Both the position numbers and the translations under genes were made by a program. Shown here one piece after another: positions 1 to 18,080 of a stretch of 64,000 nt of DNA. The stretch is taken from positions 2,824 through 66,823 of IMG/VR virus record IMGVR_UViG_3300021134_000001. One strand, written 5' to 3'. Under the pieces are notes generated by a model. The model saw only the letters and a list, made by a program, of their open reading frames with translations, was not told where the DNA came from and made no database searches. Numbering within the stretch: the first letter of the stretch is position 1; the number at the start of each line of letters is the position of its first letter. Origin of the DNA: a virus.

Positions 1-133
1 TATAACTGGCGAGATTACTGGAATTAATATAATTAGATAATAACTGAATATCGATTATCGATTACTGGTTTATATTAACTAAATTAATATTATATAATAA
101 CCATTTCATATTAACTTAAAGGATAAATATATT

Positions 134-460
134 ATGAAAAACCAATTAACTGTAACTATTCAAAACGACAAATTCGTATTAACTGAAACTAAAATGGTTT
201 TAGAAACCAAAACAGTAGGTGAAACTGAAGATTTCAAAGAATTGAGCGAAATCGTAACTTCACTTGGCTATAAGAATGCTAAGTTTTCTGACGAAGCGAA
301 GATTTTCAAGGTTTCACTGATTAAGCGCATGAAAGCGCAAAACGACGTAAAACGTCAAGAACGTGAAGCTAAGAAAGCAGAACGTGTTGCCGCAGCGAAA
401 GCTCGCGTAGAAGCACGAATTGCCGCTCTTCAAGCTCGTCTTGGTAAGTTTGGCGAATAA
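134..460 (+). CDS. hypothetical early protein with basic coiled-coil C-terminus
   Basis: 108-aa ORF, AAAGGA RBS upstream. Confidence 0.75.
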   Translation: MKNQLTVTIQNDKFVLTETKMVLETKTVGETEDFKELSEIVTSLGYKNAKFSDEAKIFKVSLIKRMKAQNDVKRQEREAKKAERVAAAKARVEARIAALQARLGKFGE

Positions 461-463
461 TCA

Positions 464-515
464 GCATAACTGATGAGTCTTTAATAGACGAAACCGTAGT
501 GATACGGTCTTATGC
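464..515 (+). ncRNA. hammerhead ribozyme HH1 (type I), predicted cut after C509
   Basis: gcataa CTGATGA gtct-ttaat-agac GAAA ccgta-gtga-tacgg TC ttatgc; full core, three paired stems, GUC triplet. Confidence 0.95.
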
Positions 516-624
516 ACAAGTATAACATCGAGCCAGTGATCTGCAGAACGATGTAAAAGTAATCGAACTGATCCGTTTCGAGGACAACGTAAAAGTCCTC
601 TTTTATTCACAAAGGAGAAATCTT

Positions 625-1434
625 ATGAATGTAGTAAAAATGCCTCAATTAACGCGTGATGAGATTCTTGATGACTATTTAGTCGCTATGCAAGATATCG
701 AAGATCGTAGTATTATGGACCAATATGAATACGCTAAGTATCTCAAACGGGCGCATGATATGTTTGCTTTAGACGTTGGTAGACCTCGCAAAACAAATAT
801 TTCTAAAGAAATAATTAAATATGCCTCGTTTACTGAGTTCTGCAAAGCAGCTAATAAAAGTCAAGGCGCAGCCACAAACGCTGTTAAAGTGGTTGAAATG
901 CTTGGCATGGATGCAAATCTATCTCAAGTCAAATTAAGCTTTACTTCGTTAAGAGAATTAGCTTATCAATCTGATGAGATTAAAGAAGAGTTTCTTCCTA
1001 AAATCTTAGATGGTGAGAAAGTTAAAATTAAAGAAGTTCTGAAGAGTTTAACTAAACCTCAGCGTGAAATTGTTGCTGAAGCAGGCTATGAGCTTGATGA
1101 AGAAGAACGCACTGGAATGACAATTGAAGAAATTCAAGCTGATCATGAGCGTGCAGACGACTTTATTGCTAACGATTTACCACGCATTAAACAAGAAGCA
1201 AAAGATAATCGTAAAGCGACTTATCAAGAAGGTTTAGAAAAGTTAGACGATTATGTCGACGAAACTAAAGAAGTTCAAGAATGGTTATTCGCTATTATTA
1301 AGCAAATTCCATTGGATAAACAACCTGCAGTAAGCAAGAAAGCTCTGTATAGCACGTTCAATATATGCTATGATGGGGCATGCGCTGAAACAGACGTAGT
1401 AAATTTTATTGAAACAAACATTAACACTTATTAA
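625..1434 (+). CDS. hypothetical protein
   Basis: 269-aa ORF with AAAGGAG RBS. Confidence 0.75.
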   Translation: MNVVKMPQLTRDEILDDYLVAMQDIEDRSIMDQYEYAKYLKRAHDMFALDVGRPRKTNISKEIIKYASFTEFCKAANKSQGAATNAVKVVEMLGMDANLSQVKLSFTSLRELAYQSDEIKEEFLPKILDGEKVKIKEVLKSLTKPQREIVAEAGYELDEEERTGMTIEEIQADHERADDFIANDLPRIKQEAKDNRKATYQEGLEKLDDYVDETKEVQEWLFAIIKQIPLDKQPAVSKKALYSTFNICYDGACAETDVVNFIETNINTY

Positions 1435-1449
1435 GAAATAAACATTATT

Positions 1450-1878
1450 ATGAAAATCTCATCAACACAGATTAAGAAAATCGAAAAAGATTTAGCATCT
1501 AAATTTGACATCTCAACTGGTAACTTACGTAAGATTTTAACAGAAATCTACAACGTTACTGATCCTGACAAAGCAAAGAAAATCACATCACGTGCGATTC
1601 TTAAGAATCATCTTTGTGAAGTTAATCGTCCTCATAAGGAGAAGTATGATGACACAGGCGATGCTAAGTATTTAGCTAAGTGCTGGGGAATATTTCCATT
1701 AACTGGAACTGGTAACAAAGGTTCATACAAAGAAGAGCTAATGACATATTCAGAAGCAAAGCGTATTGGACAAAAGAAAGTAAACTTAAATGTGTTTACA
1801 GCACGACGTAAGACAAGTATTAGCAATATGACACGAGAAATCGATCGATCTATTGGATTACTTGATTACTTTGAATAA
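1450..1878 (+). CDS. hypothetical basic protein
   Basis: 142-aa ORF. Confidence 0.7.
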   Translation: MKISSTQIKKIEKDLASKFDISTGNLRKILTEIYNVTDPDKAKKITSRAILKNHLCEVNRPHKEKYDDTGDAKYLAKCWGIFPLTGTGNKGSYKEELMTYSEAKRIGQKKVNLNVFTARRKTSISNMTREIDRSIGLLDYFE

Positions 1879-1879
1879 C

Positions 1880-1928
1880 ATCTAACTGATGAGTCCGTAA
1901 GGACGAAACCACGAAAGTGGTCTTAGAT
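1880..1928 (+). ncRNA. hammerhead ribozyme HH2 (type I), cut after C1922
   Basis: atctaa CTGATGA gtcc-gtaa-ggac GAAA ccac-gaaa-gtgg TC ttagat. Confidence 0.96.
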
Positions 1929-1952
1929 TATTATTATTGAAAGGAAATTATT

Positions 1953-2465
1953 ATGAATAAGAAACTATATAACGGTTTTAACCGTGCAGGGATGGTAAGC
2001 GCCATCCATATGGAGTGTGATACCTCAAGCTTTACTTATAAGCTCAACGATGATGAACTCATCAAAGCGTTTAAAGAAATCTTCGCTGGCAATTCAAATA
2101 TGCTAGCCGTGGAGGACTTATAATGTTTGAAATGAAATACTTAATCATTATCATTGGACTTGTATATTTTAGTATCGGCGTGGATCAATATTTTAAAGGA
2201 TCCTTACCAAACTTAATCGTATACACTGGTTACGCATTTAGTAATATTGGTTTATTCTTATTAGCAAAGTGAAAAGGAAATGAATAAAGTGGAAATTCTC
2301 TGGTTTTTCGCCGCATGTGCGGTGTCTGTAATCTTGATTAGTGGGTATCTTATAAATATCTATAGATTGATAAAGATGAAAGAAGTAAATGGTCTTACAT
2401 TTACACGAGTATGCGGAATATTTATATTCCCTATTGGCGCTATTGTAGGATTTATATCTAACTGA
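1953..2465 (+). CDS. three small ORFs (1953-2123, 2123-2272, 2280-2465); the last two are hydrophobic, likely membrane proteins
   Basis: read by hand; RBS motifs and overlapping TAATG stop/start. Confidence 0.65.
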
Positions 2466-2504
2466 TGAGTCGGTAACGACGAAACCACGAAAGTGGTCTT
2501 AGAT
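2456..2504 (+). ncRNA. hammerhead ribozyme HH3 (type I), cut after C2498
   Basis: atctaa CTGATGA gtcg-gtaa-cgac GAAA ccac-gaaa-gtgg TC ttagat; compensatory C-G to G-C swap in stem II versus HH2. Confidence 0.96.
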
Positions 2505-2519
2505 TAAAAGGAAATTATT

Positions 2520-3181
2520 ATGAAAAACGATTTATTTACGATTGTCATTGACGATCAAACATACACTTCTGACGCATTCAGAGCCTTATGTAAATATCAC
2601 GATGTTGTGCTATCCATCTATTCTGATGGTATGCTTGACTCGTTAGTATCTCTATGGAATACAATTATGCCGATCTCAAAATCTGCTAAACTGCTATTCG
2701 ATGGAGAAGAGTCTAAAGGATTCAAGCGTAAGATCTCCTTCGCTTCGAATGACGACACCAATGCAGATGGTTGGTGTGCTGATCCACGCAACTCAAAAGG
2801 AAAATACTAATGGACTTCCATGACGATCCTTCCTTCTTTGAGATTCTCGTATGGACAGTGTTATTCGCTCTCCTTTTCGCTCTCTTGTATATGTGCATGA
2901 TGGTCACAGTTTACCATCTTTAATATAAAGGAAATATTATGACTGTAAAAGATACTATGATTTCTATGGCATTGACTCAACTTCATACATCACTTCACCG
3001 TATTTATGAGATATGGTTGGAAGTTGGTAATGGAGATATGAGCGTATTAGAAGCTCGTATGGACGAAGCACGTGATGAGTTTATGGCTCGCTCAAGTAAA
3101 TACCTGACTGAGCAAGAACAGACACGTTATTTCGTCAAAGCGTATGAAGATACGTTAATCGCTGTAATGAACGCAAGTTAA
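2520..3181 (+). CDS. small hypothetical early proteins (2520-2810, 2939-3181)
   Basis: ORFs each with AAAGGAAAT RBS. Confidence 0.7.
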
Positions 3182-3226
3182 ACTGATGAGTCCTCAATGG
3201 ACGAAACCGCTTCGGCGGTCTTTAAC
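3177..3226 (+). ncRNA. hammerhead ribozyme HH4 (type I), cut after C3220
   Basis: gttaaa CTGATGA gtcc-tcaat-ggac GAAA ccgc-ttcg-gcgg TC tttaac; UUCG tetraloop. Confidence 0.96.
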
Positions 3227-3248
3227 ATTTATTATAAAGGAAACTAAA

Positions 3249-3715
3249 ATGAGTAATACACCTAACATGTCTTATTGCATGTTTGAAAATACCGAAAGCG
3301 CACTTGAACAGTGTGTAGATGCTATGAGCGAAGCGTATGATGTAGAGTCGCTTGATATGAATGAGCATGAGCGTAGCGCGTTTTTGCGAATGAGAAATCT
3401 ATGTAAAGACTTCTTAGCATTTCATGACGAAATTTTAAACAACACAAAGGAAACATTATGAAAATGAAATATAAAGCAGCCTTTACGGCTTTGAAAAAAT
3501 TAGGATGTCCAGTATATGAGCACTCCGACGATAATGGCAACTTTAGCATTTCTGCTGAAGAGGCTACATCTTATCTATGGTGTGATTACTATGATGGATA
3601 CCGAATTCCCGATTGGGAGTTTGGTGTAAGTCCTAAGATTACAGAACTACTACGTTCTAAAGGTTTATTCGCAGAGTGGATGAACAGTGGGAGATTAGTT
3701 GTATATGAAATTTGA
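3249..3715 (+). CDS. two hypothetical proteins (3249-3461, 3458-3715)
   Basis: first start reassigned to ATG 3249 after AAAGGAAA RBS. Confidence 0.7.
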
Positions 3716-4310
3716 TTTATACGTAGCCACGCACGAGTTGCGTCCTGATTATTACTATGTTGGATGCCATAAACATTCAACTAGAGCGTACAACACAAGC
3801 GGTTGGCCTAGGAAACTATGGAAAGATAGTGGAATTCGCCCAACCATTAATGTTATCGCACAGATCGAAGTAGATGAAGATGATAATGTGAGTCCATATT
3901 TACTGGAAAGAGCGTTATTCGACTCGTTAAAGAACAGTGGCGTTAACTTGGATCAGCATCGTCCAAACGTTGGCAATCCATGGGTAACAAAATCTAATAC
4001 TATTGCTCGCGATCGTCTAACTAAAGGCGAACACTTCTTTACAAACAAAGAGGAGCGCTCAAAACATACAGATGCGTACCGAAATGGCGCTAAACTTGGC
4101 GCTAAAAATCAGCCACACTCTGTTCGAGTTGCACAAGGAAAGCGCGCAGGAAAAATCGCCAAAGAGTCGGGTCAACTGCGAAGTATTGCACCGCTTGGTG
4201 GCAAGAACGCCGCAAGACCTCAGCTCTGTTTAGAATGTCATCGCGTCTCACAGGCCGCTAAATGGTGGCATTATAAAAACTGCGAACATTTAATAAAAGT
4301 AGACATATAA
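3699..4310 (+). CDS. putative GIY-YIG-like homing endonuclease with Gly/Lys-rich DNA-binding repeats and C-terminal Cys/His finger
   Basis: LYVA...YYYVG near N-terminus, ESGQLRSIAPLGGK motif, CLEC...H...C tail. Confidence 0.5.
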   Translation: MYMKFDLYVATHELRPDYYYVGCHKHSTRAYNTSGWPRKLWKDSGIRPTINVIAQIEVDEDDNVSPYLLERALFDSLKNSGVNLDQHRPNVGNPWVTKSNTIARDRLTKGEHFFTNKEERSKHTDAYRNGAKLGAKNQPHSVRVAQGKRAGKIAKESGQLRSIAPLGGKNAARPQLCLECHRVSQAAKWWHYKNCEHLIKVDI

Positions 4311-4319
4311 AGGAATACT

Positions 4320-4736
4320 ATGACTGAACGATTTATTGTATTAAACCAAATCCGTACTCCTGATGGTACGATCTTACGCTCCATTAATCGACATGATTAC
4401 CGCACTTACATCGATAAGAATGGTAAGGAATATATGGTTGATGGTGGCACTGACTATCTTCGTCGTAACGTCCATGAAGACGCTCCATACGATGAGTTGT
4501 CTGTTTATTCTGACGATTCTTTCGATGTAATCAGGAGAAGTTTGCATTGGGGCACCTACGGTCCCAAAGGTGACCAAGCGAAGCGTTACGTTCCAATGGC
4601 TGAAATGTCAGACGATCACATTCGTGCGATCTTAGACACGCAGCCACAGGTGCAAGGCATTCTTCGCCAATGGTTTAAAGAAGAATTGAGATGCCGTGAA
4701 TGCGGTCTGTATGAATATGTAAAGGATACATTATGA
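4320..4736 (+). CDS. conserved phage hypothetical protein
   Basis: S..RHDY...VDGG.DYLRR motif typical of phage proteins. Confidence 0.7.
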   Translation: MTERFIVLNQIRTPDGTILRSINRHDYRTYIDKNGKEYMVDGGTDYLRRNVHEDAPYDELSVYSDDSFDVIRRSLHWGTYGPKGDQAKRYVPMAEMSDDHIRAILDTQPQVQGILRQWFKEELRCRECGLYEYVKDTL

Positions 4737-4960
4737 ACGTAAAAGATTTTGAAGTATTAAACCGCCGCTATGCGATCGACATTAATCGCTTTCGTGATGG
4801 ACAAGGATTGACAGTTGATCTATTCAACGCTCTTTTTGACTACTACTGCCAAGGCAATGAAATGCCTTATGGAGTGGCGAAGGCGAGAACAGGCGATCCA
4901 TATGAATGGATAGACTCTCACTTTGGAGATTTCTTAAAAGATTTTGACAACTCACCGTAA
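4733..4960 (+). CDS. hypothetical protein
   Basis: 75-aa ORF, MPYG.AKAR.GDPY motif. Confidence 0.7.
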   Translation: MNVKDFEVLNRRYAIDINRFRDGQGLTVDLFNALFDYYCQGNEMPYGVAKARTGDPYEWIDSHFGDFLKDFDNSP

Positions 4961-5030
4961 CTGATGAGCCGTGCATTCGGCGAAACTACTGTTGTGCAAA
5001 TCAATAACTTGCACGACAGTAGTCTTACGG
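4955..5030 (+). ncRNA. hammerhead ribozyme HH5 (type I, long stem III), cut after C5024
   Basis: ccgtaa CTGATGA gccg-tgcatt-cggc GAAA ctactgttgtgcaa...ttgcacgacagtag TC ttacgg. Confidence 0.95.
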
Positions 5031-5142
5031 CCACCGTTGGAGCCGCCATTACGGTAAACAACGACCTTGTATCAGTTGACTCCCTTTGTTGACGAAATAC
5101 GAGCGCTTTTGACAGGTTGAGCGGTAATCAATCTGTCCTGTA
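5025..5142 (+). ncRNA. putative 118-nt small RNA released by HH5 and HH6
   Basis: non-coding interval between two predicted cleavage sites; folds into three hairpins. Confidence 0.55.
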
Positions 5143-5188
5143 CATGGATGTGTGTCCATGCTGATGAGTTCTAAAGAACGAAACAGAC
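5135..5188 (+). ncRNA. hammerhead ribozyme HH6 (type III), cut after A5142 (GUA triplet)
   Basis: ctgT A catgga-tgtgtg-tccatg CTGATGA gttc-taaa-gaac GAAA cag; stems I and II closed, stem III open. Confidence 0.9.
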
Positions 5189-5207
5189 TTATTATAAAGG
5201 AAATAAA

Positions 5208-7498
5208 ATGGAATATACGAAACTTGAGGAACTGCAAGGCATTTTCTCTGATTTTCACAAAGATTACTACGGATTTAGACCACGCTTTGCTAGCGCTGAA
5301 GAGTGGAATAGCAAAGAATGGTTGCAATCGCAAATTGATAGCATTCATGATGCGATAAACTGTAGAGCTAAAACACCGCAAGGTAGAGCAGCACTACTCG
5401 CCGAAGGGTGGGTAATTAACGATGATATTATAAAGGAATAAATATTATGAAAGTATTAAACAATCCACAGGTGTATATGGAACCTGGCACTTACTACATT
5501 GGTGATTTATGCTACGTATTACAAGATTCATGGGATGAATTCTGTAAAATCACTATTAGTGGTGAGCAATGTCTTAGCGGCGGATTTAGGTTTGCTGATG
5601 GACGCGAATTCGTTTCATTTACCACTATCTATGGTGATGGCACTTATTATGACAAAGATGGTTTTCAATATCCAGTTGATGCAGGCTTAATTGGTTGCAT
5701 TAGAGTCCAAGATATGGACAATGTAGATATCGATGAAGCGTCTCACGATGGAAGAGTGCATGTATTTACTAAACCATTTATATGCGAAAAGGTTGATGGT
5801 GTCCTTTACTTTGGTAAAGTGGCCATCGATCTCGATCCAAGTGATTATAACGATGATGAAGAGGAGTATGACGATGAGTAAATTGTTAGAACAACTCGAA
5901 GAAGAGTTAGGACTTCCTGCATGGAAGATTTTAGAAATGCAAAGAGCAGAGATGGCTGATCCATCCGCTATGCGCATGAATTTTCTAAATGGTACGCTAT
6001 ACGCTACACATTACGCGTATAGTGATATCAATCCGTATGAAGTATTACGTGTTGTATCAGATAATTGCTTAGAAGTTCGCGCAATGCGACACGAAAACGA
6101 TCCAAATGACATGCCAACGTTTGTGCCAGGCGGCTTTAGCGTCATCTGCACTCACTTCGGCAGCCGTGTAATCACAGTCGATCCTAAAGGTAAAGTGTTT
6201 AAGATTCGCCGTACAAAGCGTAATCCTGAACGTTGGACATACAAAGGTATGCGCTTTGCATTAGACAAAGAGCCACGCGCTTACTACGATCACAACTTTT
6301 AATAAAAGGAATACTATGAAAATGAAACATGAAAGGCATGCTCAAAAGATGGCTGATGCCATGTATCTTAATTTTATGGAGAATTCCTTAGATTATGTTC
6401 GAGATTCGACAGCAACTAAGGATGGCTTCGACGATTTAGATGAGTATCTTAAAGTAGAAAACTATGCGATAACATTATTCGCAATTCAATTATTAAAGGA
6501 AATACATGATTATAAATAAACAAAGAACGGCCTCATGGGTCGCTACGCTTCCTACGCTCACCTCTGAAGAGGATAGGCTCGCTCTTGCAGCCATCAAGTC
6601 CACTGTAAAGTCGATCAACGACAACAATGCACGTGATGAGAAATGGCGCAAGCGTTTCGATAAACACTGTAATGAAGTTGGCTATCCTCGCTATCGTGTC
6701 ACCATTCGTGCTCGTGGGCCAGTCAATGGTTACAAGTACGGCTATGGTGGCTATTTGAAACTCGCTGGTGGTAGTCGTTTTGACATCTACATCCACGTGA
6801 GAGGGTAACATGCCTAAATTCAAAATCCCAAAGAAATACCAAAAGTATATCGATGAAGATTCGATTGACGTTTATCACGGTCTCGATAGTTCGACGTATT
6901 TTGTATGGTTACGCTATGGATATAGTTACGACTATGAAAATAGTGGTAGCCATAATCAAGGATACGACTCACTTAAAGAGGCGTTAGCTGGTCTTGAAGA
7001 CGTTTATCTCTGCAACTGCGCTGATTGCGCTAAAGAGCCGCGTGGCACTCCAGTAAAGGACCTAATGAATGCCTAAATTTGTCGTTTATGAAACTAAAGA
7101 GAATGGTAAGGATTATGTCCTTGCCACTGTCGAAGGTATGGCAGCTGCTATGAAAGAGCTGAAGCGCCGTAAGAAGTTGGTGAAAGAAACCTCTGTTGTC
7201 GGTATGCAAGACAAAGAGATTTACCTATTTATTAAAAAACATCAAGAAAAGGAAGCTAAGAAAAATGGCAACTAAACCAAACACAGTAAAGAAGCAAAAG
7301 AACGGTAACATTACTCGTAATGGTAAACCAAAAATTAAATCGTTAAGTGTTGCACAGATTCAAAAGCTAATCGATCAAGGAGCGCAAAAGAACGCGACAT
7401 CAAAGATCGGTAAGAAGATGGCGAAACTTAAGAATGCACTATGTGCTCGATTTAAGCCATTGATTGATAGCGATCCTATTGGTTTCCAACAAAGTTAA
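5208..7498 (+). CDS. cluster of small hypothetical early proteins (5208-5441, 5447-5881, ~5874-6302, 6316-6519, 6506-6808, 6810-7076, 7069-7275, ~7265-7498)
   Basis: tightly packed ORFs with AAGGA-type RBS. Confidence 0.7.
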
Positions 7499-7573
7499 AC
7501 TGATGAGTCCTTAATGGACGAAACAAGCGGTCACATATCCGACCAGGCGATAACGCTGCCGCTTGTCTTTAAC
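7494..7573 (+). ncRNA. hammerhead ribozyme HH7 (type I, insert in stem III), cut after C7567
   Basis: gttaaa CTGATGA gtcc-ttaat-ggac GAAA caagcgg...ccgcttg TC tttaac. Confidence 0.94.
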
Positions 7574-7621
7574 ACACGTATGGTATTCGCTATGCGTGAC
7601 TATATTATGAAAAGGAGATTT

Positions 7622-8458
7622 ATGAAAAGTAAAGAATTTACGCCAATGTTGGCGTCTGTATTTAAACCAGAAAAGTTGAAATTTCCTGCACTTGCATCGC
7701 GCAAATTGGACGGCATTCGCTGCATCGTTAGAGATGGCGTAGCGCTATCACGTAGCGGCAAGCCGATTCGCAATCAGTATATTCAAAGCGTCTTAGGACG
7801 TAAGGAATTCAATTGGTTGGATGGTGAGCTGATCGTTGGCGCGCCAAACGACCCAAAGGCGTTTTCCAACTCCACTTCAGGCGTAATGTCTGAAGATGGT
7901 GAGCCTGACTTCGTCTTTCACGTCTTTGACATCGCTGCTGAAGGCGCTGGCTTTGAGACTCGCTTAGCGGTTGCTAAAAGTATCGTTACGAAAGCAAAGA
8001 GCAAGCACTTGAAGATTGTCGAACACGTCAAGCTTACCTCACTAGGTGGCTTAGACATTATCGAAGAGAAGTGGTTGATGGAAGGATTTGAAGGTGTAAT
8101 GTTACGCTCTTTAGATGGCCCATACAAACTTGGTCGCTCTAGCGTAACTGAAGGTCACTTGTTGAAAGTGAAACGCTTTAGTGATGCGGAAGCCGAAATC
8201 ATTGGCTATGTCGAAGAGGTTACAACAAAAGATCGTACACCAAAGAATGCATTAGGTAAGTTTATTTGCCGTATGCCGAATGGTGTAGAGTTTGGCGTTG
8301 GTGGCGGCTTTAGTCGTGAAGAGCGTGAGAAATTTTGGAAGCAACGAAACAAAATGATCGGTCAAATCTGCAAGTACAAGTACTTTGAAGTAGGTATGAT
8401 CGAGGCTCCAAGATTCCCATCATTTATAGGTATTCGAGATAAGGAAGATATGTCATGA
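7622..8458 (+). CDS. ATP-dependent DNA ligase
   Basis: KLDGIR adenylation motif, LDGEL, EGVMLR, LLKVK, PRFP; start moved to ATG 7622 after AAGGAG. Confidence 0.93.
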   Translation: MKSKEFTPMLASVFKPEKLKFPALASRKLDGIRCIVRDGVALSRSGKPIRNQYIQSVLGRKEFNWLDGELIVGAPNDPKAFSNSTSGVMSEDGEPDFVFHVFDIAAEGAGFETRLAVAKSIVTKAKSKHLKIVEHVKLTSLGGLDIIEEKWLMEGFEGVMLRSLDGPYKLGRSSVTEGHLLKVKRFSDAEAEIIGYVEEVTTKDRTPKNALGKFICRMPNGVEFGVGGGFSREEREKFWKQRNKMIGQICKYKYFEVGMIEAPRFPSFIGIRDKEDMS

Positions 8459-8622
8459 AATACGTTATAGCGTTTGTAATTACCTTATTACTGAGCGCAT
8501 GTGGCACGACCACGTATACTTCTACACCATATTATGGATATTCATCATATCCACACTATTATTGCAGTTACTGTAGAGTATCACGTCCATACGTACGACA
8601 GTATTATCGTAGGTATTATTAA
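8455..8622 (+). CDS. small Tyr-rich lipoprotein
   Basis: MKYVIAFVITLLLSAC lipobox; 55 aa, read by hand. Confidence 0.6.
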   Translation: MKYVIAFVITLLLSACGTTTYTSTPYYGYSSYPHYYCSYCRVSRPYVRQYYRRYY

Positions 8623-8685
8623 TGGACCGCTTGGCAGACGCCAAGTGGCCAACTAGCCCATAACTAATTGATTATAAAGGATAAA

Positions 8686-9420
8686 ATGATAAATTTAGTA
8701 AATACTGACTGTTTAGAGCATTTAGCTTCGCTAGAAGATAACTCTATTGATTTGATAATCGCTGATCCTCCATATTTTATTGGATATGACGGCGGCAAAG
8801 GTTGGGATTCTGCTTGGGAAACTGAGCAAGACTATCTAGAGTGGTGTAATCTATGGACAACTGAATGTTCTAGAGTTCTGAAGCCTAATCGCATGTTAGC
8901 TGTATTTGGCACACTCAAGACAAATCTGTTCATTAAGTATAAACTTCAAACAGATGAAAACCCTCTATTGACTTCACAAAATGAGCTTATCTGGTCTTAC
9001 AACTGGGGTGGTAGAAGTAAAACAAACTTTGCGCGCAAACATGAATACGTATGGTGCTGGTCGAAAGGTGATAACTTTCTATTCAACGCTGATGCGGTTA
9101 GAATTGAACGCAAACAGAAGAGTAATCCAAGAACTGGTGAAGAGTATGCACAAGGCACAATTCCTACTTGTGTATGGGAAAAGAACAACCATACAATGAG
9201 TAAGGAGTTTTGTAAATGGCATCCTACTCAAAAGCCTGTAGAAATTCTCGATCGCATTATTCGAGGATACACTAACGAAGGTGACACTGTGCTTGATATC
9301 TTTAGCGGCAGCGGCTCAACAGCGATTGCGGCTACTAACGCCAAGCGTAACTTTAGCGGATGTGAACGCGATACTGACTACTTTGCGAAAAGTTTAGTTC
9401 GTATTCGTGAACTCACGTAA
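8686..9420 (+). CDS. DNA methyltransferase (N6-A/N4-C, beta class)
   Basis: ADPPY, HPTQKP, VLDIFSGSG motifs. Confidence 0.93.
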   Translation: MINLVNTDCLEHLASLEDNSIDLIIADPPYFIGYDGGKGWDSAWETEQDYLEWCNLWTTECSRVLKPNRMLAVFGTLKTNLFIKYKLQTDENPLLTSQNELIWSYNWGGRSKTNFARKHEYVWCWSKGDNFLFNADAVRIERKQKSNPRTGEEYAQGTIPTCVWEKNNHTMSKEFCKWHPTQKPVEILDRIIRGYTNEGDTVLDIFSGSGSTAIAATNAKRNFSGCERDTDYFAKSLVRIRELT

Positions 9421-9428
9421 GGAGTAAT

Positions 9429-9800
9429 ATGGCCGGACCTCAAGGTAAAGCTATGGCCGTAGGCTCGCATTGCGCTCGAAAGAACGTAAGCGTAGACGGC
9501 TTCACTAGGTATCCTGTGAAATCGCACAATCTCGAGCCATCAGGCGTTTACTTGAATAAAGTGAAAGCATGGATGCATGAGCATATGCCATGGGAAACGA
9601 AACAATGGGAAAAGAAGTTTGGTGTCAAAGAATGGTGGCAGATGGTCAAGATCGAAATGACTGACTACTGCTTTGGATTCGAGGGCAATCAGGCGACTTA
9701 TCTCTATATTAAATATAAAGGAGAGTTAGATGAATCTCAAGCGAAACCTCGTGGCGAAGTACGCGGCAAGATTCGCTACAAGCAAGCCGATTCTGAGTAA
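9429..9800 (+). CDS. hypothetical protein
   Basis: 123-aa ORF, AAGGAG RBS. Confidence 0.65.
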   Translation: MAGPQGKAMAVGSHCARKNVSVDGFTRYPVKSHNLEPSGVYLNKVKAWMHEHMPWETKQWEKKFGVKEWWQMVKIEMTDYCFGFEGNQATYLYIKYKGELDESQAKPRGEVRGKIRYKQADSE

Positions 9801-10013
9801 GAAGCAGAAGTTAAAGAGTCGTAAAGTAAAGCATAGGAAAAGATATGAATCCATTTGAAATGCTTGACTTAATTAGACGTACCCATCCTGATGGATATTG
9901 GCGCGCAAGGATTGCAACATATCTCGCAACGCATCGTTATACGATGAAGGAAGGTGCGGCTAATGAGTGGCGCAATGTTCCACCAGATGGATTACCTATA
10001 CAAGGAGAAAATC

Positions 10014-10496
10014 ATTAACATATTCTATCTTGACGCGGATCCTGTAAAGGCCGCAGAAATGCACTGTGATAAACATGTGTGTAAGATGATCATCGAAACG
10101 GCTCAAATGATGAGCTCGGTCCAAGCTCGTTATGGACTCGAAAATCCTCCATACAAACCAACGCATCAAAAGCATCCATCAACGCTGTGGTCAGGCGATA
10201 ACACGCTTCACTATGCATGGCTAAGAGCATTAGGATTGAGCTTATGCCGTGAGTATACGAAGCGCTATAATAAAACCCATAAGACTGAAGCGATTATTAA
10301 AGATTTATGGTCAGCGCCGCTTGGCATGCCTACAGGAGAGTGGAGCAATCCACCTCAATGTATGCCTGACGAGTGTAAGATGGATGACACCATCGATGCT
10401 TATCGTAAGTATTATGTTATTGCTAAAGCGAAGTTTGCCAAATGGGCACACGCAACTAAGGCACCGCAATGGTGGCCTAAGCTACAAACAATGTAA
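10014..10496 (+). CDS. pyrimidine-dimer DNA glycosylase (DenV-related) family protein
   Basis: NIFYLD.DP..AA..HCDKHV.KM..E.AQ, YKPTH..HP, PPQCMP, AYR.YY; probable ATT start. Confidence 0.75.
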   Translation: MNIFYLDADPVKAAEMHCDKHVCKMIIETAQMMSSVQARYGLENPPYKPTHQKHPSTLWSGDNTLHYAWLRALGLSLCREYTKRYNKTHKTEAIIKDLWSAPLGMPTGEWSNPPQCMPDECKMDDTIDAYRKYYVIAKAKFAKWAHATKAPQWWPKLQTM

Positions 10497-10539
10497 CTGA
10501 TGAGTCCTAATGGACGAAACGCCGTGAGGCGTCTTACAT
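10491..10539 (+). ncRNA. hammerhead ribozyme HH8 (type I), cut after C10533
   Basis: atgtaa CTGATGA gtcc-taat-ggac GAAA cgcc-gtga-ggcg TC ttacat. Confidence 0.96.
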
Positions 10540-10557
10540 AATTATTAAAGGAGGAAT

Positions 10558-12117
10558 ATGGCACGTAATATAAAGAAAGAAATAGGCGAGTTATATACAG
10601 CATTAAACTCCGTTCGCGCTGAAAAGCGATCTTTAGCGGCTCGAATGGATAACGCTCGACGTGCTAGCACTCTTGGGATCGACTTAGGTGACAACGAGTT
10701 TTACTATCGCGTCAGTATGGATTTCCGTGGTCGTTTGTATTATCGCGGCTCACATATGAATCCTCAAATGGGTGATGACATTAAGGTAATGTTAACCTTA
10801 GGCCAGAAGAAGCCGCTCACCGAGATGGGATTTAAATGGTTGTTATGGGGAATCGCTTCAGCTGCAGGCCAGAGTAAGAAGAGTTTCTCTGAGCGTGTCG
10901 AATGGACGCTTGAAAATTGGGCTAATATTCGCGAAGCCGTTCGCAATCCTATTGAATCTCAATGGTTTGCTGACGTCGTAATGGGTGAAGATGAGCCTGC
11001 ACTGTTTCTACAACGCGCTACTGTTGCAGTAGAGGCTGTAGAGTCTGGCGCTCCATTTGATTATCCAACAGATATCACTATTGCAATGGACGCAACATGC
11101 TCAGGTCTTCAGATTCTCTCAGCGGTCGCTCGTGACCTCGAAGGTGGACGCTTAGTCAACCTCGTCGACACTGGCGAGCGCCAAGACGTGTATCTGACGG
11201 TGCTGAATATGGTCAAGCAATCTTATGCAAACGATAACGATGTATTTGCTATCCACATGCGTGAGAATAGCGAAACCTTTGGTCGTCGATTTACAAAGAA
11301 AGTGGTAATGACATTGCCGTATTCTGCGACGTTTAGAAGTGCAGTTGGTTATATTCTAGACGAATTGCAAGGCAATATGGAGAAAAACAATCCTCCATTC
11401 CCATTGCCTGATTCTGTTGAAGATCGCTTAGCACTCTATAACGCCATCTTAGCCCGCAAAGGTAAGGATTTAGTTATAGATTCCACTTTAGCGAAGTTAG
11501 ACGATTTTAGTTTATATCGCATGCTTGCTGATTACCTTGGCCGTCTAGTAATGGACGCCTGTGATAAGTGTTTACCTGCGGCGCTAAATCTCTTACACTT
11601 TTTCCAATCGTGTCCTAAACATTTAGATGGACACGCACATTGGATGACGCCTGATGGATTTAGAGTAGACCAAGTTTATGGCTCTCGCGAACGTGAAAAG
11701 ATTCAATTTCGTTTACAAATGGCAGACCAAGAGACTGGCGAACTAATCAGTCAAAAGATTCAGCGTCGCTATGAATGGCTAGACCCAAACGAAAAGGATG
11801 GACGTAAAGCAGCTAACGGAATGCCACCTAATTGGGTGCACTCATTAGACGCAACGCTAGTGCGAATGGTAGTAAGAACATGCGATTTTCCAATCGTCTG
11901 TATTCACGATTCATTTGCATCACATCCGGCAGATTGTGAAGACTTATCTAAAGCGTTGCGTGAACAGTTTACACTTCTTGTTCAGCAAATGCCATTAGAG
12001 ACTTTAATTACACAATTGAACGAGCAAGTTGGCGATGAGATTTTCTCAACAACCAATTTGACTGTAAACACTTGGGATCCAGAGCAAGCGAAAACTTCAC
12101 CCTTTCTATTTTGTTAG
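10558..12117 (+). CDS. T7-family RNA polymerase, catalytic (C-terminal) subunit
   Basis: DFRGRLY, motif A DATCSGLQ, motif B R...K..VMT..Y, PNWVHSLDA, motif C IHDSF, F-rich C-terminus. Confidence 0.93.
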   Translation: MARNIKKEIGELYTALNSVRAEKRSLAARMDNARRASTLGIDLGDNEFYYRVSMDFRGRLYYRGSHMNPQMGDDIKVMLTLGQKKPLTEMGFKWLLWGIASAAGQSKKSFSERVEWTLENWANIREAVRNPIESQWFADVVMGEDEPALFLQRATVAVEAVESGAPFDYPTDITIAMDATCSGLQILSAVARDLEGGRLVNLVDTGERQDVYLTVLNMVKQSYANDNDVFAIHMRENSETFGRRFTKKVVMTLPYSATFRSAVGYILDELQGNMEKNNPPFPLPDSVEDRLALYNAILARKGKDLVIDSTLAKLDDFSLYRMLADYLGRLVMDACDKCLPAALNLLHFFQSCPKHLDGHAHWMTPDGFRVDQVYGSREREKIQFRLQMADQETGELISQKIQRRYEWLDPNEKDGRKAANGMPPNWVHSLDATLVRMVVRTCDFPIVCIHDSFASHPADCEDLSKALREQFTLLVQQMPLETLITQLNEQVGDEIFSTTNLTVNTWDPEQAKTSPFLFC

Positions 12118-12123
12118 GAATAT

Positions 12124-13029
12124 ATGAGTATAAAACAAGAACAAATCCAAAGAGAGTTAGAAGCGATTCGTTTAGTAAAACAGAGTAGACTTGAAAAGAC
12201 TGAACTTATGAACAGTCTTCAAGAGACCTTCTCTGAAGAAATTCAAACGCTAAGCGAATCTCTTACAAAGTGGTACGCAACGATGCAAGATCCTAAAGAT
12301 GATAATGCGTTACTTTATCAAAAATTAGTGTTTAGCATTGAAACGCCAGTTATGGCTGAACTTATCATTCGCGCTATCTTTGAAGGACTTATGATAACAA
12401 CGCATCAATCCGTGAATTATCAGTTTATCGTAGATCGCCTGCTTATTCAAAGGTATTTACGTAGCACGCTTCCTCCTGAAGAACGTGTTATCTTACCTAA
12501 GTATAAGTTCTTAGTGATCGATAGATTGGTTACACGATCAGTGCGATTACTAACAACGCTATTCTCCGAATCAATGGTTCGTGAGCGTAACGCTAAAGGT
12601 GAGGTTGAGACGTTTTACACCGTCCACCTTACTGAGTTAGGTCGTGAGCGATTAGCAAAGGTTCCACTAAATCAAGTAATCTCTGACGTTCCAATGTATT
12701 GTAAACCGCAGCCATGGACTTCAGTGTTTGATGGTGGATATCTAACAGCGGACGCGCAACGAGGAAATCCTTTGATTCAATCGAAGCGTCTTTCTTATCG
12801 CGAACTGCGTGCAATCGATAAAGAATTGCAAGCAAATCCACAGATCTTTGAGGCAGTAAATAAGATGCAAAATGTATCTTTTAGAATAGACCAAAAATCC
12901 AAAGATTATCAGAACACTATTGCGCAAGTGCGAAAACGTAAGATTAAGGAATGTGATCGCAAGATTACAGCCTACGTCGAGCAGATCGCGAAGCTCAAGA
13001 GTGACCTGGCGCAAGTGGATCCTATATAG
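12124..13029 (+). CDS. T7-family RNA polymerase, N-terminal-domain subunit
   Basis: PMYCKPQPWTSVFDGGYL and IFEAVNKMQNVSFRID resemble T7 RNAP PCVVPPKPWTGITGGGY and VYKAINIAQNTAWKIN. Confidence 0.82.
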   Translation: MSIKQEQIQRELEAIRLVKQSRLEKTELMNSLQETFSEEIQTLSESLTKWYATMQDPKDDNALLYQKLVFSIETPVMAELIIRAIFEGLMITTHQSVNYQFIVDRLLIQRYLRSTLPPEERVILPKYKFLVIDRLVTRSVRLLTTLFSESMVRERNAKGEVETFYTVHLTELGRERLAKVPLNQVISDVPMYCKPQPWTSVFDGGYLTADAQRGNPLIQSKRLSYRELRAIDKELQANPQIFEAVNKMQNVSFRIDQKSKDYQNTIAQVRKRKIKECDRKITAYVEQIAKLKSDLAQVDPI

Positions 13030-13033
13030 AGAG
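13009..13033 (+). promoter_or_regulatory. putative phage RNAP promoter, copy 1
   Basis: GCGCAAGTGGATCCTATATAGAGAG, exact repeat at 25167; TATA then purine-rich start like T7/SP6 promoters; upstream of replication genes. Confidence 0.75.
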
Positions 13034-13073
13034 CTCCCGTAGCACTCTTTTTTCAATAACATGGAGAGCCTAG

Positions 13074-13607
13074 ATGGCAAAACTAAAAACCACAGTAACA
13101 CCAAAAGGTGTATTGTCATGGCCTTACATTGGTAAGCCAGATACACGATACAATCCTGAAGGTGTGTATAAGACCAGCTTGATTGTACCAGCCGAGACCG
13201 CTGAACCGCTGATGACTATGTGTAAAGACGCTTTTATTACCGAGTACGGCGCAACAAAGATGGCTAAGGCAAATATGCCTTTCTCACCTGAGTTGGACGA
13301 TCAAGGCCAAGAAACTGGCAATATCGTATTTAAATTTAAGTCAAAGCGTGCACCTAAGTTATACGATGCCAAAGGCAAAGTAATTAACAAAGTGCTACAA
13401 GTATCGTCTGGCACGGTTGCGAAAGTTGCTACTGCAATTAATCCATACATGACTGGTATCAACGTGGGTGTTTCACTATATCTCAATGACGTTCAGATTA
13501 TCGAATTAGTTGAATATGGTGCAGGCGCTAAGTTTGAAGCTGAAGATGGATACGAAGCAGAAGACAACGGATCGACAGACGATGGCAAAGACTCGCCTGA
13601 CTTCTAA
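13074..13607 (+). CDS. single-stranded DNA-binding protein (T7 gp2.5-like)
   Basis: TPKG, KPD, GVSLYLNDVQIIELVE, acidic tail ending in F. Confidence 0.9.
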   Translation: MAKLKTTVTPKGVLSWPYIGKPDTRYNPEGVYKTSLIVPAETAEPLMTMCKDAFITEYGATKMAKANMPFSPELDDQGQETGNIVFKFKSKRAPKLYDAKGKVINKVLQVSSGTVAKVATAINPYMTGINVGVSLYLNDVQIIELVEYGAGAKFEAEDGYEAEDNGSTDDGKDSPDF

Positions 13608-13986
13608 ACAACTTGCTATTAAATACGCATATCGTAGTGGATTAGAAGAGAAGATTGCCGATCAGCTGACGAACTTAAACGTCTCCTTTACTTTCGAAGA
13701 AACTGTATTGTATTATACTAAGCCAGAGCGTAAGCATCGCTATACGCCTGACTTTGTGTTATCCAATGGCATTATCATCGAAACTAAAGGTCGTTTCTTA
13801 ACGGCTGATCGACAGAAACATCTCCTTGTCAAAGAACAGAATCCCACTATGGATATTCGTTTCGTGTTCTCAAACTCGAACGCTCGTATCTCTAAATCAT
13901 CTGCTACAACGTATGCAGATTGGTGTAGAAAACACGGCTTTCAGTTTGCGGATAAACTAATACCTGTTGAATGGATAAAGGAATAA
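13582..13986 (+). CDS. endonuclease I / Holliday junction resolvase (T7 gp3-like)
   Basis: YRSGLE, YTPDF, IIETKG, DIRFVFSNS. Confidence 0.95.
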   Translation: MAKTRLTSKQLAIKYAYRSGLEEKIADQLTNLNVSFTFEETVLYYTKPERKHRYTPDFVLSNGIIIETKGRFLTADRQKHLLVKEQNPTMDIRFVFSNSNARISKSSATTYADWCRKHGFQFADKLIPVEWIKE

Positions 13987-13989
13987 GTA

Positions 13990-15609
13990 ATGGAAGCGGA
14001 AGATAGTAAATTTCTACGACACGAACAATGCGAATCTTGCGGTTCGTCGGATGCAAAGGCTATTTATAGTAATGGCTCTACCTTCTGTTTTTCATGTCAA
14101 GTATCTACGCGTAAAACGTCAGATAACAAAGTGCAAACTATGAACGCCACGACTCCACTTTTGAATCCGTATTTCGATGGACAAGTGGAACCATTGGCCG
14201 CTAGAGGTATTGCTGAAGCGACGTGTCAGAAGTATGGCGTTCGCAAAGGCCAACTCAACGGCAAAGTGGTCCATCTCTATCCTTACTACAAGGATGGACA
14301 AGTTGTCGCAGCAAAGACGCGCGATGCCGCCAAGAATTTCAATATTATTGGTGATGGCAAAGATTTGTCGTTCTTTGGTCAAAATCTATTTGGTAAGCCA
14401 AGCGATAAGATTTCGCTTGTGGTTACTGAAGGTGAAATTGACGCGTTATCAATGGCTCAGATTATGGGATTAAAATTCCCAGTCGTATCTGTGCCAAGCG
14501 GCGCTCAATCTGCCGTTAAAGCCTTTCGCAATAACATTGAATGGCTTGATGGTTGGAAAGACGTCGTTATCATGTTTGACAGCGATGCGCCAGGTCGAGA
14601 CGCTGCTCAGAAGTGTGCAGAAGTCCTTAGACCAGGCAAAGCACGTATTGCATCATTGCCGTTGAAAGACGCTAATGATATGTTGATGGCTAAGCGTTCT
14701 GAAGAATTGATGAAATGCTTCTGGGATGCAAAGTCATTTAGACCTGACGGTATTATTGCAGGTGTAGATTTGTGGGAGTTGATTTCTCATGAAGATGAAA
14801 CGCTTTCAGTTGAGTATCCATTCGTGGCGCTCAATGAAAAGACGCATGGTTGTCGACGCGGTGAGTTGGTTACAGTTACGGCTGGATCAGGCATCGGTAA
14901 ATCGGCGTTTATGCGTGAAATTGCCCATCACTTACTAAACCTCGGTGAAACAGTTGGCATGGTGATGTTGGAAGAAAATCCACGTCGAACAGCGTTAGGC
15001 CTTATGGGCTTAGCGATTGATAAACCATTACATCTGTCACGTGAAGGCGTAAGTCAAGAGCAATTACGTACAGCATTTGACCAAACACTTGGTACTGGTA
15101 GAGTATTCTTATTCGATCACTTCGGTTCTTCTGAAGTTGAGCATTTAATGAATAAACTCCGTTACATGGTAAAAGGTTTAGGCTGTAATTGGGTTATTCT
15201 TGATCACCTATCCATTCTAGTATCTGGATTGGAAGGCGTAGATGAGCGAAGACTTATCGACCAAGCAATGACAATGTTGCGTACATTCGTAGAAGAAACC
15301 GGTTGTGGTATGTTATTAGTGTCGCATTTAAAACGACCTGATGGCAAAGGCCATGAAGAAGGTGCCCATACGTCTCTATCGCAACTTCGTGGTAGCCATG
15401 CTATCGCTCAACTTTCTGATATTGTTATCGGATTGGAGCGTAATCAGCAAGGTGATAATCCTAATGAAACTCAAATACGCGTTCTAAAGAATCGATTTAG
15501 TGGTGAAACTGGCGAAGCCGGTAAGCTCTACTTTAATCGTGACACTGGACGTTTAACTGAGACATTTATACAAGTAACTTCTAATAACAACTCTTTTGGA
15601 GAATTTTAA
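13990..15609 (+). CDS. primase-helicase (T7 gp4-like)
   Basis: Zn ribbon CxxC...CxxC, TOPRIM EGEID and FDSD, Walker A AGSGIGKS, LRGS, KNRF. Confidence 0.96.
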   Translation: MEAEDSKFLRHEQCESCGSSDAKAIYSNGSTFCFSCQVSTRKTSDNKVQTMNATTPLLNPYFDGQVEPLAARGIAEATCQKYGVRKGQLNGKVVHLYPYYKDGQVVAAKTRDAAKNFNIIGDGKDLSFFGQNLFGKPSDKISLVVTEGEIDALSMAQIMGLKFPVVSVPSGAQSAVKAFRNNIEWLDGWKDVVIMFDSDAPGRDAAQKCAEVLRPGKARIASLPLKDANDMLMAKRSEELMKCFWDAKSFRPDGIIAGVDLWELISHEDETLSVEYPFVALNEKTHGCRRGELVTVTAGSGIGKSAFMREIAHHLLNLGETVGMVMLEENPRRTALGLMGLAIDKPLHLSREGVSQEQLRTAFDQTLGTGRVFLFDHFGSSEVEHLMNKLRYMVKGLGCNWVILDHLSILVSGLEGVDERRLIDQAMTMLRTFVEETGCGMLLVSHLKRPDGKGHEEGAHTSLSQLRGSHAIAQLSDIVIGLERNQQGDNPNETQIRVLKNRFSGETGEAGKLYFNRDTGRLTETFIQVTSNNNSFGEF

Positions 15610-15610
15610 G

Positions 15611-15856
15611 ATGAGCACAAACAGCTACTTCGTAATCCGCGCAATCAAAGAAAAAGGCGTAGCAACGTCTGCATTTATTGCAAAGAAGTATAAAGTTAAA
15701 AACGTATCAGCCACTGTATCTGCCTTGCGCAAACGTGGTCATGAGATTGTAACACTTGCCGAAGGTTATGCATTGCCTTTCGGTACGCGCGATGAAGCAG
15801 CCAAACTAAGTAAGACTGCGCGCAACAAGATTGCTAAGCAATTTGGCTTAGTATAA
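15611..15856 (+). CDS. small winged-HTH-like DNA-binding protein
   Basis: IA..Y...NVSATVSALRKRGH pattern. Confidence 0.55.
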   Translation: MSTNSYFVIRAIKEKGVATSAFIAKKYKVKNVSATVSALRKRGHEIVTLAEGYALPFGTRDEAAKLSKTARNKIAKQFGLV

Positions 15857-15924
15857 AGTATCATAAATGAATCACTAAGCTACATAATGTATCATATACG
15901 ATACAATTTGGCTTAGTATAAAGT
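15839..15924. repeat. 21-bp direct repeat CAATTTGGCTTAGTATAAAGT (15839-15859, 15904-15924)
   Basis: exact repeat in AT-rich DNA. Confidence 0.85.
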
Positions 15925-15974
15925 GTAGTTACTTCTTATAAACATTTCTTTGTATCTAACTAGGAGTATTAAAC

Positions 15975-16136
15975 ATGAATGCTTTTATCGTTACTGCGGT
16001 AGTAAGTCTTTTCTCAATTAACGCAATGGCTTTAGAGCCTGCGATCGTTAAAGCTGATAAAAAGAAAGAAGTCAAGGCTGTAAAGCAAGCGACACCTGCT
16101 AATGCTGCACCTGCTGCGCCTGCTGCAAAGAAATAA
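15975..16136 (+). CDS. small secreted Ala/Lys/Pro-rich protein
   Basis: AGGAG RBS, signal peptide ending AMA, 53 aa; not in ORF track. Confidence 0.7.
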   Translation: MNAFIVTAVVSLFSINAMALEPAIVKADKKKEVKAVKQATPANAAPAAPAAKK

Positions 16137-16139
16137 TCA

Positions 16140-16199
16140 GTCTGACTGATGAGCCTTAAATAGGCGAAACCGCCACTCGTGAGAGTCGCGGTCTCAGAC
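16140..16199 (+). ncRNA. hammerhead ribozyme HH9 (type I), cut after C16193
   Basis: gtctga CTGATGA gcct-taaat-aggc GAAA ccgc-c-actc-gtga-gagt-c-gcgg TC tcagac. Confidence 0.95.
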
Positions 16200-16268
16200 A
16201 ATCTCAACTATCACATAAGTGATTGATTTGATTACATATTTTCACCCTACAAAGACAGATAGGAACGA

Positions 16269-18068: not shown

Positions 18069-18080
18069 TAGGAGAATTAC

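Follow-up and report, generated by a model that had tools for sequence, protein, structure and literature searches.

We analysed a stretch of 64,000 nucleotides (nt), hereafter the window, of an IMG/VR virus contig (IMGVR_UViG_3300021134_000001; 66,823 bases, the window beginning at record base 2824), which carries nine hammerhead ribozymes, named here HH1 to HH9. The record is a fragment with a completeness estimate of 59%, and its source is an uncultured freshwater phage related to T7, virulent-looking. Minus-strand open reading frames occupy the first 2.4 kb of the record; a rightward (plus-strand) arm of closely packed genes with AAGGA-type ribosome sites runs from window position 134 to about 28 kb and is followed by a tRNA at 29113 and, from 30.6 kb of the window, by the structural genes, on the minus strand. 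All nine hammerheads have the orientation of the genes and either occupy intergenic gaps or overlap a stop codon: the first is 3′ of the first gene, and the following ones come at intervals of 0.1-5.7 kb.

The core pattern CTGATGA-N6-30-GAAA has nine matches in the 64 kb, all on the plus strand between 470 and 16169 (starting at 470, 1886, 2462, 3183, 4961, 5161, 7500, 10497, and 16146); in 100 dinucleotide shuffles it occurs 1.42 times on average and six times at most, never nine. This pattern does not require pairing, and all nine core-only matches prove to have all three stems. We applied the core criteria given in the methods of Perreault et al. (2011; PMC3088659), i.e., C3 U4 G5 A6 N7 G8 A9…G12 A13 A14 A15.1…U16.1 H17, and found CUGAUGA, GAAA, and UC or UA at the expected places in each of the nine, with uninterrupted stems adjoining the core (pairs 10.1-11.1, 1.1-2.1, and 15.1-16.1). 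Eight of the elements are type I, with the cleavage triplet GUC and with stems I, II, and III of 6, 4, and 4-14 bp, respectively; the remaining one (5138-5186) is type III. Cleavage is predicted after positions 509, 1922, 2498, 3220, 5024, 5142, 7567, 10533, and 16193. A three-stem scanner returned the nine elements and, in addition, a weak second parse built on the core of HH3 (the 2456 element), which we discounted; the scanner found no element in 50 shuffles of the record, searched on both strands.

The individual elements were scored with Rfam and with R1, a covariance model whose seed consists of nine short type I copies, five of them window sequences (HH1-HH4 and HH8) and four taken from relatives, so that HH5, HH7, and HH9 lie outside its seed. 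HH1 (464-515; plus strand and type I, as are all the following except where said) stands 3′ of the gene at 134-460; it has stems of 6, 4, and 5 bp, the cleavage triplet GUC, and a minimum-free-energy fold that is the hammerhead, scores 72.4 bits with R1, and would be cut at 509, 116 nt before gene 625-1434. HH2 (1880-1928; cut 1922) begins 1 nt past the stop codon of gene 1450-1878, with its cut 31 nt before the start at 1953; its predicted fold is the hammerhead, and its Rfam Hammerhead_1 score is 34.5 bits, versus a gathering score of 34. HH3 (2456-2504; cut 2498, 22 nt before the start at 2520), the core of which holds the stop codon of gene 2289-2465, is a near copy of HH2 (91%) with a compensatory change in stem II, from GUCC/GGAC to GUCG/CGAC. 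HH4 (3177-3226; cut 3220, 29 nt before the start at 3249) holds the stop codon of gene 2939-3181 in its stem I; it scores 29.3 bits with Hammerhead_1, is predicted to fold into stems II and III only, and is a near copy of HH7 (97% over 33 nt).

HH5 (4955-5030; cut 5024) has a 14-bp stem III, and its stem I holds the stop codon of gene 4733-4960; it has no Rfam match and scores 24.5 bits with R1, folds as a hammerhead with a z-score of -5.6, and has orthologues in related loci (L018, L091-L093, and L314; loci of relatives are given L numbers throughout) that differ in stems II and III. HH6 (5138-5186; cut 5142, 66 nt before the start at 5208) is the sole type III element: it matches Rfam Hammerhead_3 at 35.3 bits (E 2.2e-4), under the gathering score of 48.5, its predicted fold comprises stems I and II only, and in six orthologues stem III stays constant at 4 bp and the other two stems carry compensatory changes. 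HH7 (7494-7573; cut 7567), which has a 42-nt insert in stem III and the stop codon of gene 7265-7498 in stem I, would be cut 55 nt before the DNA ligase gene (7622-8458), and scores 56.0 bits with R1; a 10-bp hairpin at 7575-7598 lies directly 3′ of HH7 and 5′ of the ligase ribosome site. HH8 (10491-10539; cut 10533) holds in stem I the stop codon of gene 9963-10496 and has its cut 25 nt before an RNA polymerase gene (10558-12117), with a Hammerhead_1 score of 36.1 bits versus 34. Finally, HH9 (16140-16199; cut 16193) lies between gene 15975-16136 and the DNA polymerase gene (16269-18068), its cut 76 nt before the start of the latter; its R1 score is 59.9 bits and its fold is the hammerhead, with a z-score of -3.6.

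Loop II has the conserved form UNAAU or GUAA, and stem I measures 6 bp in every type I copy, with A residues at its borders; the minimum-free-energy fold is a complete hammerhead for six of the nine elements and contains two of the three stems for HH4, HH6, and HH7. The AAGGA-type ribosome sites downstream of the cuts would stay intact. HH5 is the exception in spacing, the next gene being 184 nt from its cut. The initial annotation had reported nine sense-strand elements with complete cores and with stems that vary between copies while pairing is kept, cuts 22-116 nt upstream of a start codon except at HH5, ribosome sites left intact, and none on the late (minus) arm; pattern scan, parse, scanner, covariation, and the searches described next bear this out, all nine cut positions agree with our parse, and only the start of HH6 moves, from 5135 to 5138.

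Rfam is only partly sensitive to this hammerhead design. One of the nine elements reached the gathering score when the whole window was searched and two did so in a 20-kb run (36.1 and 34.5 bits, against 34 for Hammerhead_1); in the latter run eight had some hammerhead-family match at E ≤ 10, the element at 4955 having none, and the remaining scores were 19-35 bits. Longer stem III loops and inserts are the main reason why seven of the nine miss the gathering score; the comparison with Rfam models proposed earlier recovers nearly all elements as weak matches and few at the family threshold. Run with filters off on the 66.8-kb record, R1 found the eight type I elements at 24.5-72.4 bits, followed by the type III element at 14.8 bits and noise at no more than 12.1 bits; nothing on the minus strand of the record exceeded 10.7 bits, and Rfam at E ≤ 1 returned a tRNA and no hammerhead in 20000-64000. 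We also considered membership in RAGATH-1 (RF03152) and rejected it, since the scores are 22.5-28.2 bits versus 56.3 and a full 4-bp stem II misfits that variant.

The same design is found in close relatives of the phage. Among the loci whose primase/helicase is at least 71% identical to that of the window, 13 of 15 carry it, always on the gene strand, and the two ribozyme-free loci are fragments of 4-5 kb; L091-L093, found via a 144-aa protein, have 12-13 ribozymes each. Whole related records have 15, 14, 8, 7, and 12 R1 matches, on one strand only per record. Further away, at no more than 58% identity, 65 loci of relatives (mostly contigs of about 42 kb) gave no R1 match in 1,024,416 bases. 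In the ribozyme-free loci L025-L089 the bare pattern CTGANGA…GAAA does occur, 172 times on the gene strand versus 19 times on the other; we rejected these 172 matches as ribozymes, R1 giving none there, and they are probably a shared coding motif counted once per locus. Megablast of window positions 1-20000 against cultured phages gave no match. A tblastn search with the primase/helicase placed podophages of Ralstonia and Roseobacter closest among cultured phages, at no more than 58% identity, and no cultured member of the ribozyme-bearing clade was found, the cultured genomes themselves not having been scanned for ribozymes.

Comparison of the copies revealed that pairing is kept while sequence changes. 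In an alignment of 81 matches (50 distinct), 98.5% of the cells are paired, versus 28-37% when partners are slid, and 12 of the 15 pairs change on both sides; 149 cells show such both-side changes, versus 29.7 in shuffles, none of 500 shuffles reaching 149. A check independent of pairing gave the same picture: in 16 related loci, 79 of the 94 plus-strand core matches lie in full three-stem hammerheads, and the same loci have only two core matches on the minus strand. The catalytic core is intact in all 51 distinct type I copies of the clade (GUC in 45, GUA in six). The positions of the elements are conserved as well. There is a hammerhead directly 5′ of the RNA polymerase gene in L009, L010, L011, L014, L015, L018, L020, and L022, and one 5′ of the ligase gene in L018, L022, and L010, and further hammerheads separate the primase/helicase block from the gene for DNA polymerase; these three sites (ligase, RNA polymerase, and DNA polymerase) persist at a polymerase identity of only about 52%, which answers in the affirmative the question of synteny raised by the initial annotation.

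Between the cuts of HH5 (5′ end) and HH6 (3′ end) lies a non-coding RNA of 118 nt (5025-5142, plus strand); the gap between HH5 and the next gene is long because these two ribozymes frame it, and both the framing and the type III topology of HH6 had been missed when the elements were first described. The RNA is predicted to fold into three hairpins (-36.4 kcal/mol, z-score -2.97), and its conserved single-stranded parts are an apical loop, UCCCUUU, and a linker, GCUUUUG. The arrangement of type I element, spacer, and type III element, with 118 or 125 nt between the cuts, is present in L018, L314, and L091-L093, and L022 has the small RNA and the type III element on a contig that starts inside the arrangement. 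For example, the spacer of L314 differs from that of the window at five positions, and the upstream ribozyme has different stems II and III. Since a type I element upstream and a type III element downstream would leave only six and five ribozyme nt on the RNA, the choice of the single type III topology at HH6 is the telling point.

Homologues of the small RNA were identified in L018, L022, L314, L091-L093, L020, and L337; in the last two, R2, a covariance model of the spacer, detects diverged copies without flanking ribozymes. Six spacer sequences show both-side changes at 13 of 30 pairs, with 93.3% of cells paired versus 31-48% when slid, in an alignment that is small, covers three lineages only, and was fitted to the model. 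Rfam gave no match to the spacer alone at E ≤ 10, no tRNA or tmRNA was called at 5025-5142, and blastn found no match in cultured phages. Pattern scans added little: a loose pattern picked out no relative among the at least 116 viral loci matched and one (L314) among at least 119 metagenome loci, and a tighter pattern matched eight viral loci, of which five were known, one (L337) was new and true, and two were chance. We regard the 118-nt RNA, with low confidence, as a trans-acting regulator that pairs via its C/U-rich loop; AAAGGGA, the sequence that would pair with UCCCUUU, does not occur on the plus strand of the window and occurs twice on the minus strand, one of these being the loop's own complement, and we name no target in the phage. 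In the loci that have the small RNA without hammerheads (L020, 1424-1600; L337, 4516-4633), the homologue lies directly 3′ of a stop codon. In L020 a long hairpin follows it at about 1545-1580, which could be a candidate processing site for a protein nuclease.

Product names for the plus-strand arm come from PHROGs and Pfam scans of its proteins. Besides the ligase, RNA polymerase, and DNA polymerase genes named above, the arm (all on the plus strand) encodes a methyltransferase (8686-9420), a DNA-binding protein (9963-10496), a gp2.5-like single-strand DNA-binding protein (13074-13607), an endonuclease (13510-13986), a primase/helicase (13990-15609), and an exonuclease (18859-19620), followed by an alpha-glucosyltransferase-like protein (19843-21036), an HslV-family peptidase (22538-23008), and a NifU-like Fe-S assembly protein (24398-24781). 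The genes upstream of 7.6 kb mostly belong to no family. One of these (3705-4310; 201 aa, no family) lies in 628 nt (3679-4308) that contigs of two other metagenomes (X3 and X4) replace by 33 other nt, and this stretch is missing from L018 too. The T7-like, single-subunit RNA polymerase is split into two adjoining genes in swapped order: gene 10558-12117 encodes the catalytic part (Pfam RNA_pol; PHROG profile positions 346-816), and gene 12124-13029 encodes the N-terminal part (RPOL_N; profile positions 188-319). L010, L018, L020, and L022 have the same swapped order. An exact 23-nt plus-strand repeat ending in CCTATATAGAGAG is located just 3′ of the RNA polymerase genes (13011-13033) and 5′ of a dCMP deaminase gene (25169-25191). 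It looks like a phage-polymerase promoter; no copy with three or fewer mismatches was found on the late arm.

We consider it probable, judging from the sequence, that the array serves the co-transcriptional self-processing of a polycistronic early and middle RNA; this is the best reading because the elements are in sense orientation, are confined to gene boundaries, and are conserved in relatives. The rightward unit would span the early genes and those for ligase, methyltransferase, RNA polymerase, single-strand DNA-binding protein, endonuclease, primase/helicase, and DNA polymerase. Each ribozyme would fold on the nascent RNA and cut itself after GUC or GUA, so dividing the transcript into about ten pieces. 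At a type I site the upstream piece would keep its stop codon and end in stems II and III with a 2′,3′-cyclic phosphate, and the downstream piece would begin with a 5′-hydroxyl, six ribozyme nt, and a short leader with an intact ribosome-binding site; the HH5/HH6 pair would release the structured 118-nt RNA. It is known that neither 5′-monophosphate-stimulated RNase E nor RNase J acts well on 5′-hydroxyl ends, and that 3′ exonucleases are slowed by terminal hairpins. In this way the decay and translation of each gene block would be uncoupled from those of the other blocks and would not depend on host RNase III. The promoter-like repeat at 13011-13033 suggests that HH1-HH8 would lie on an early transcript made by the host polymerase, and HH9 on one made by the phage polymerase.

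Several observations weigh against self-processing, or at least against its simplest form. The predicted pieces mostly hold 2-8 genes and the layout therefore does not give single-gene tuning; of the initial proposal, ribozyme processing agrees with the sense orientation, the boundaries, and the conservation, whereas the separately tuned mRNAs do not agree with blocks of this size. The stop codon of the preceding gene falls within the ribozyme in five of the eight type I elements (within stem I in four of them, within the core in HH3), so that a terminating ribosome would cover the ribozyme. The predicted folds lack the A/U-rich stem I in HH4 and HH7 and the 4-bp stem III in HH6, and we identified no tertiary contact between stem I and loop II of the kind that gives fast cleavage at low Mg2+, no pairing partner, and no pseudoknot in the clade copies. 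Five of the nine R1 seed sequences are from the window, which makes their R1 scores circular, and the covariation alignment behind the 98.5% of paired cells was selected by and fitted to R1. Scans for sigma-70 promoters (47 versus 47.1 expected) and terminators (16 versus 12.9) are at chance level, and the extent of the transcript is therefore read from gene packing only. Lastly, all 24 runs that match the phage are DNA metagenomes, from freshwater or lakes, and none is RNA.

The overlap with stop codons also bears on a different reading, in which cleavage is conditional and the ribozymes are switches, set by ribosome traffic, Mg2+, or the polymerase, that tune the ratio of long to short transcripts. 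A stop codon in stem I or the core of five of eight type I elements would suit such a switch, as would the weak stem I of HH4 and HH7 and the weak stem III of HH6, and regulated cleavage of phage hammerheads is raised in the relevant passages of Perreault et al. (PMC3088659); no aptamer-like insert is conserved, however, the stem III inserts of HH5 and HH7 being absent from orthologues, and we think this reading unlikely. Far less probable is a ligation step after paired cleavages, by reversal of the ribozyme reaction or by an RtcB-type ligase of the host, that would yield a circular small RNA or spliced products. The 5′-hydroxyl and 2′,3′-cyclic phosphate ends of a hammerhead are substrates of such ligation, and from general hammerhead chemistry the ends predicted at HH5 and HH6 are of that type; in the window, moreover, the predicted fold pairs both ends of the 118-nt RNA. 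This terminal pairing is not conserved (the first 16 nt of the L091 copy are unpaired in its predicted fold), for which reason we rejected a circular small RNA; L020 and L337 have the small RNA without flanking ribozymes, and a scan of 40 plus-arm proteins revealed neither an RNA ligase nor an end-healing enzyme. The possibility of ligation is named by Perreault et al., and, in the parts of that paper that deal with it, ligated products were not detected (PMC3088659). That the elements are inactive look-alikes or decaying selfish repeats without a role hardly deserves credence: it fits the finding that only two of nine reach the Rfam gathering score, but not the perfect cores in nine of nine, the compensatory changes, the synteny across about 50% protein divergence, the sense-only orientation, or their complete absence from shuffles.

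A further reading takes the hammerheads to be chiefly boundary modules of exchangeable cassettes, either recombination linkers or units of leader, gene, and ribozyme, with RNA cleavage secondary. The variation around the elements speaks for it. At HH9 the window matches L013 except that it lacks a unit of about 545 nt, which in L013 consists of a gene for about 135 aa and the second of two ribozymes, HH9 having the upstream flank of the first L013 ribozyme and the downstream flank of the second; DNA contigs from three other metagenome runs bridge HH9 unchanged, and the junction is therefore no misassembly. In nine of the 13 variant-contig rows listed, divergence starts at 1879, 3181, 3222, 3230, 10489, or 10541, which are borders of HH2, HH4, and HH8, and one variant joint (15909 to 16139) stops where HH9 begins; assembly at short repeats may, however, account for part of these contig breaks. 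The RNA polymerase genes of L018 (6596-9016) are 53% and 42% identical to those of the window (10558-13029), despite flanking proteins that are 94-99% identical and an identical HH8; this difference looks like a module swap, with a breakpoint that is not placeable to the nucleotide. The near copies within the genome (HH2/HH3 and HH4/HH7) fit the reading as well. We had also counted the edges of high-scoring segment pairs near ribozyme borders (51 of 138), and dropped them as evidence because the count is inflated by ribozyme-to-ribozyme homology. Taken together, the variants suggest that these phages gain, lose, and exchange cassettes that are delimited by ribozymes. As an account of what the ribozymes are chiefly for, we nevertheless hold the reading improbable. 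The stems differ between copies and pairing is kept, i.e., pairing rather than DNA identity is under selection, and differing stems would be poor substrates for homologous recombination; moreover, a DNA linker needs neither strict sense orientation nor the intact cores seen in 51 of 51 distinct type I copies. Exchange of cassettes is compatible with self-processing, and the two are not exclusive.

Self-processing by clustered hammerheads is itself not a new idea, since Perreault et al. (2011; PLoS Comput Biol, PMC3088659) already described it, and the novelty claimed for the array in the initial annotation was overstated. According to the sections of that paper on phage elements, multiple hammerheads often flank prophage genes, long phage transcripts are proposed to be processed into operon- or gene-length mRNAs, and three triple arrays cleave in vitro, one also in E. 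coli. The window has the marks of such clusters (nine elements on the coding strand and at gene boundaries, among phage replication and structural genes): as in the prophage clusters presented there, sense hammerheads flank genes or short gene blocks and the proposed role is the same. Unlike them, the window has nine elements in 16 kb, and relatives 14-15 model matches, in a virulent-looking T7-related phage; eight of its nine elements share one type I design, the polymerase and ligase sites are conserved, and one pair frames a non-coding RNA. The HHphage of haloviruses HF1/HF2, for which the same source describes a transcript 5′ end mapped within 3 nt of the cut (PMC3088659), is a single core-variant ribozyme in an archaeal virus, whereas the window holds an array. 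In core, three-way junction, and the stem left open (I in type I, III in type III), the elements match Rfam Hammerhead_1 (RF00163) and Hammerhead_3 (RF00008). A 2019 review repeats the idea of phage-transcript processing and calls the roles elusive, and what hammerheads do in bacteria and phages is still described as elusive in the portions of PMC6765202 and PMC6155905 that treat it and in the introduction of PMC13725137.

The closest functional parallel is T7 itself. As far as the relevant part of PMC4858673 describes it, host RNase III, scarce in infected cells, cuts the early precursor of T7, about 7 kb long, while it is being transcribed; the five cuts fall between genes and yield mono- and dicistronic mRNAs, that for the phage RNA polymerase among them. 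The window has its predicted cuts just 5′ of the ligase and polymerase genes, as in RNase III processing in T7; the likeness, an analogy drawn from predicted sites, is one of function only and not of shared family. Unlike T7, the window would need no host enzyme, its predicted ends are 5′-hydroxyl and 2′,3′-cyclic phosphate (5′-phosphate and 3′-hydroxyl in T7), and its 3′ ends would keep a ribozyme, whereas those of T7 keep half of an RNase III hairpin. What is new is the scale of the array, the conserved 118-nt RNA framed by ribozymes, and the ribozymes at cassette and indel boundaries. Our literature search, in which most subscription papers were outside the scope, found no arrays of such density in a virulent T7-like lineage (the figures and datasets of PMC3088659 might hold larger ones), and nothing on presence and absence in sister lineages, on a ribozyme-framed phage small RNA, or on ribozyme-bounded cassettes.

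Combined into a single claim, which we put forward tentatively and would not quite call probable, self-cleaving RNA may have taken over the task of RNase III in T7 in one uncultured branch (nine elements here, 14-15 model matches in two records); the pair of type I and type III elements may be a near-scarless excision cassette for an undescribed regulatory RNA of 118-125 nt, whose UCCCUUU loop may pair with purine-rich, Shine-Dalgarno-like sequences; and units of gene plus hammerhead may have been gained, lost, and swapped. In engineered systems, an upstream ribozyme used as an insulator shields the ribosome site, and flanking ribozymes release an RNA with defined ends. Unlike the synthetic ribozyme-flanked cassettes for guide or circular RNAs, the arrangement in the window is natural, combines type I with type III, and is conserved in the clade, and the framed small RNA would give a naturally occurring forerunner of a design at which synthetic biologists arrived independently. 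The ribozymes are compact (49-52 nt), sequence-diverse, and presumably orthogonal, and may serve as insulator parts. For the phages themselves, the clade is a clean natural experiment, with many ribozymes of the same design at syntenic boundaries and none in sister lineages that have the same genes; it permits comparison of ribozyme processing with RNase III processing, and of the effects of 5′-hydroxyl and cyclic-phosphate ends on mRNA life and translation.

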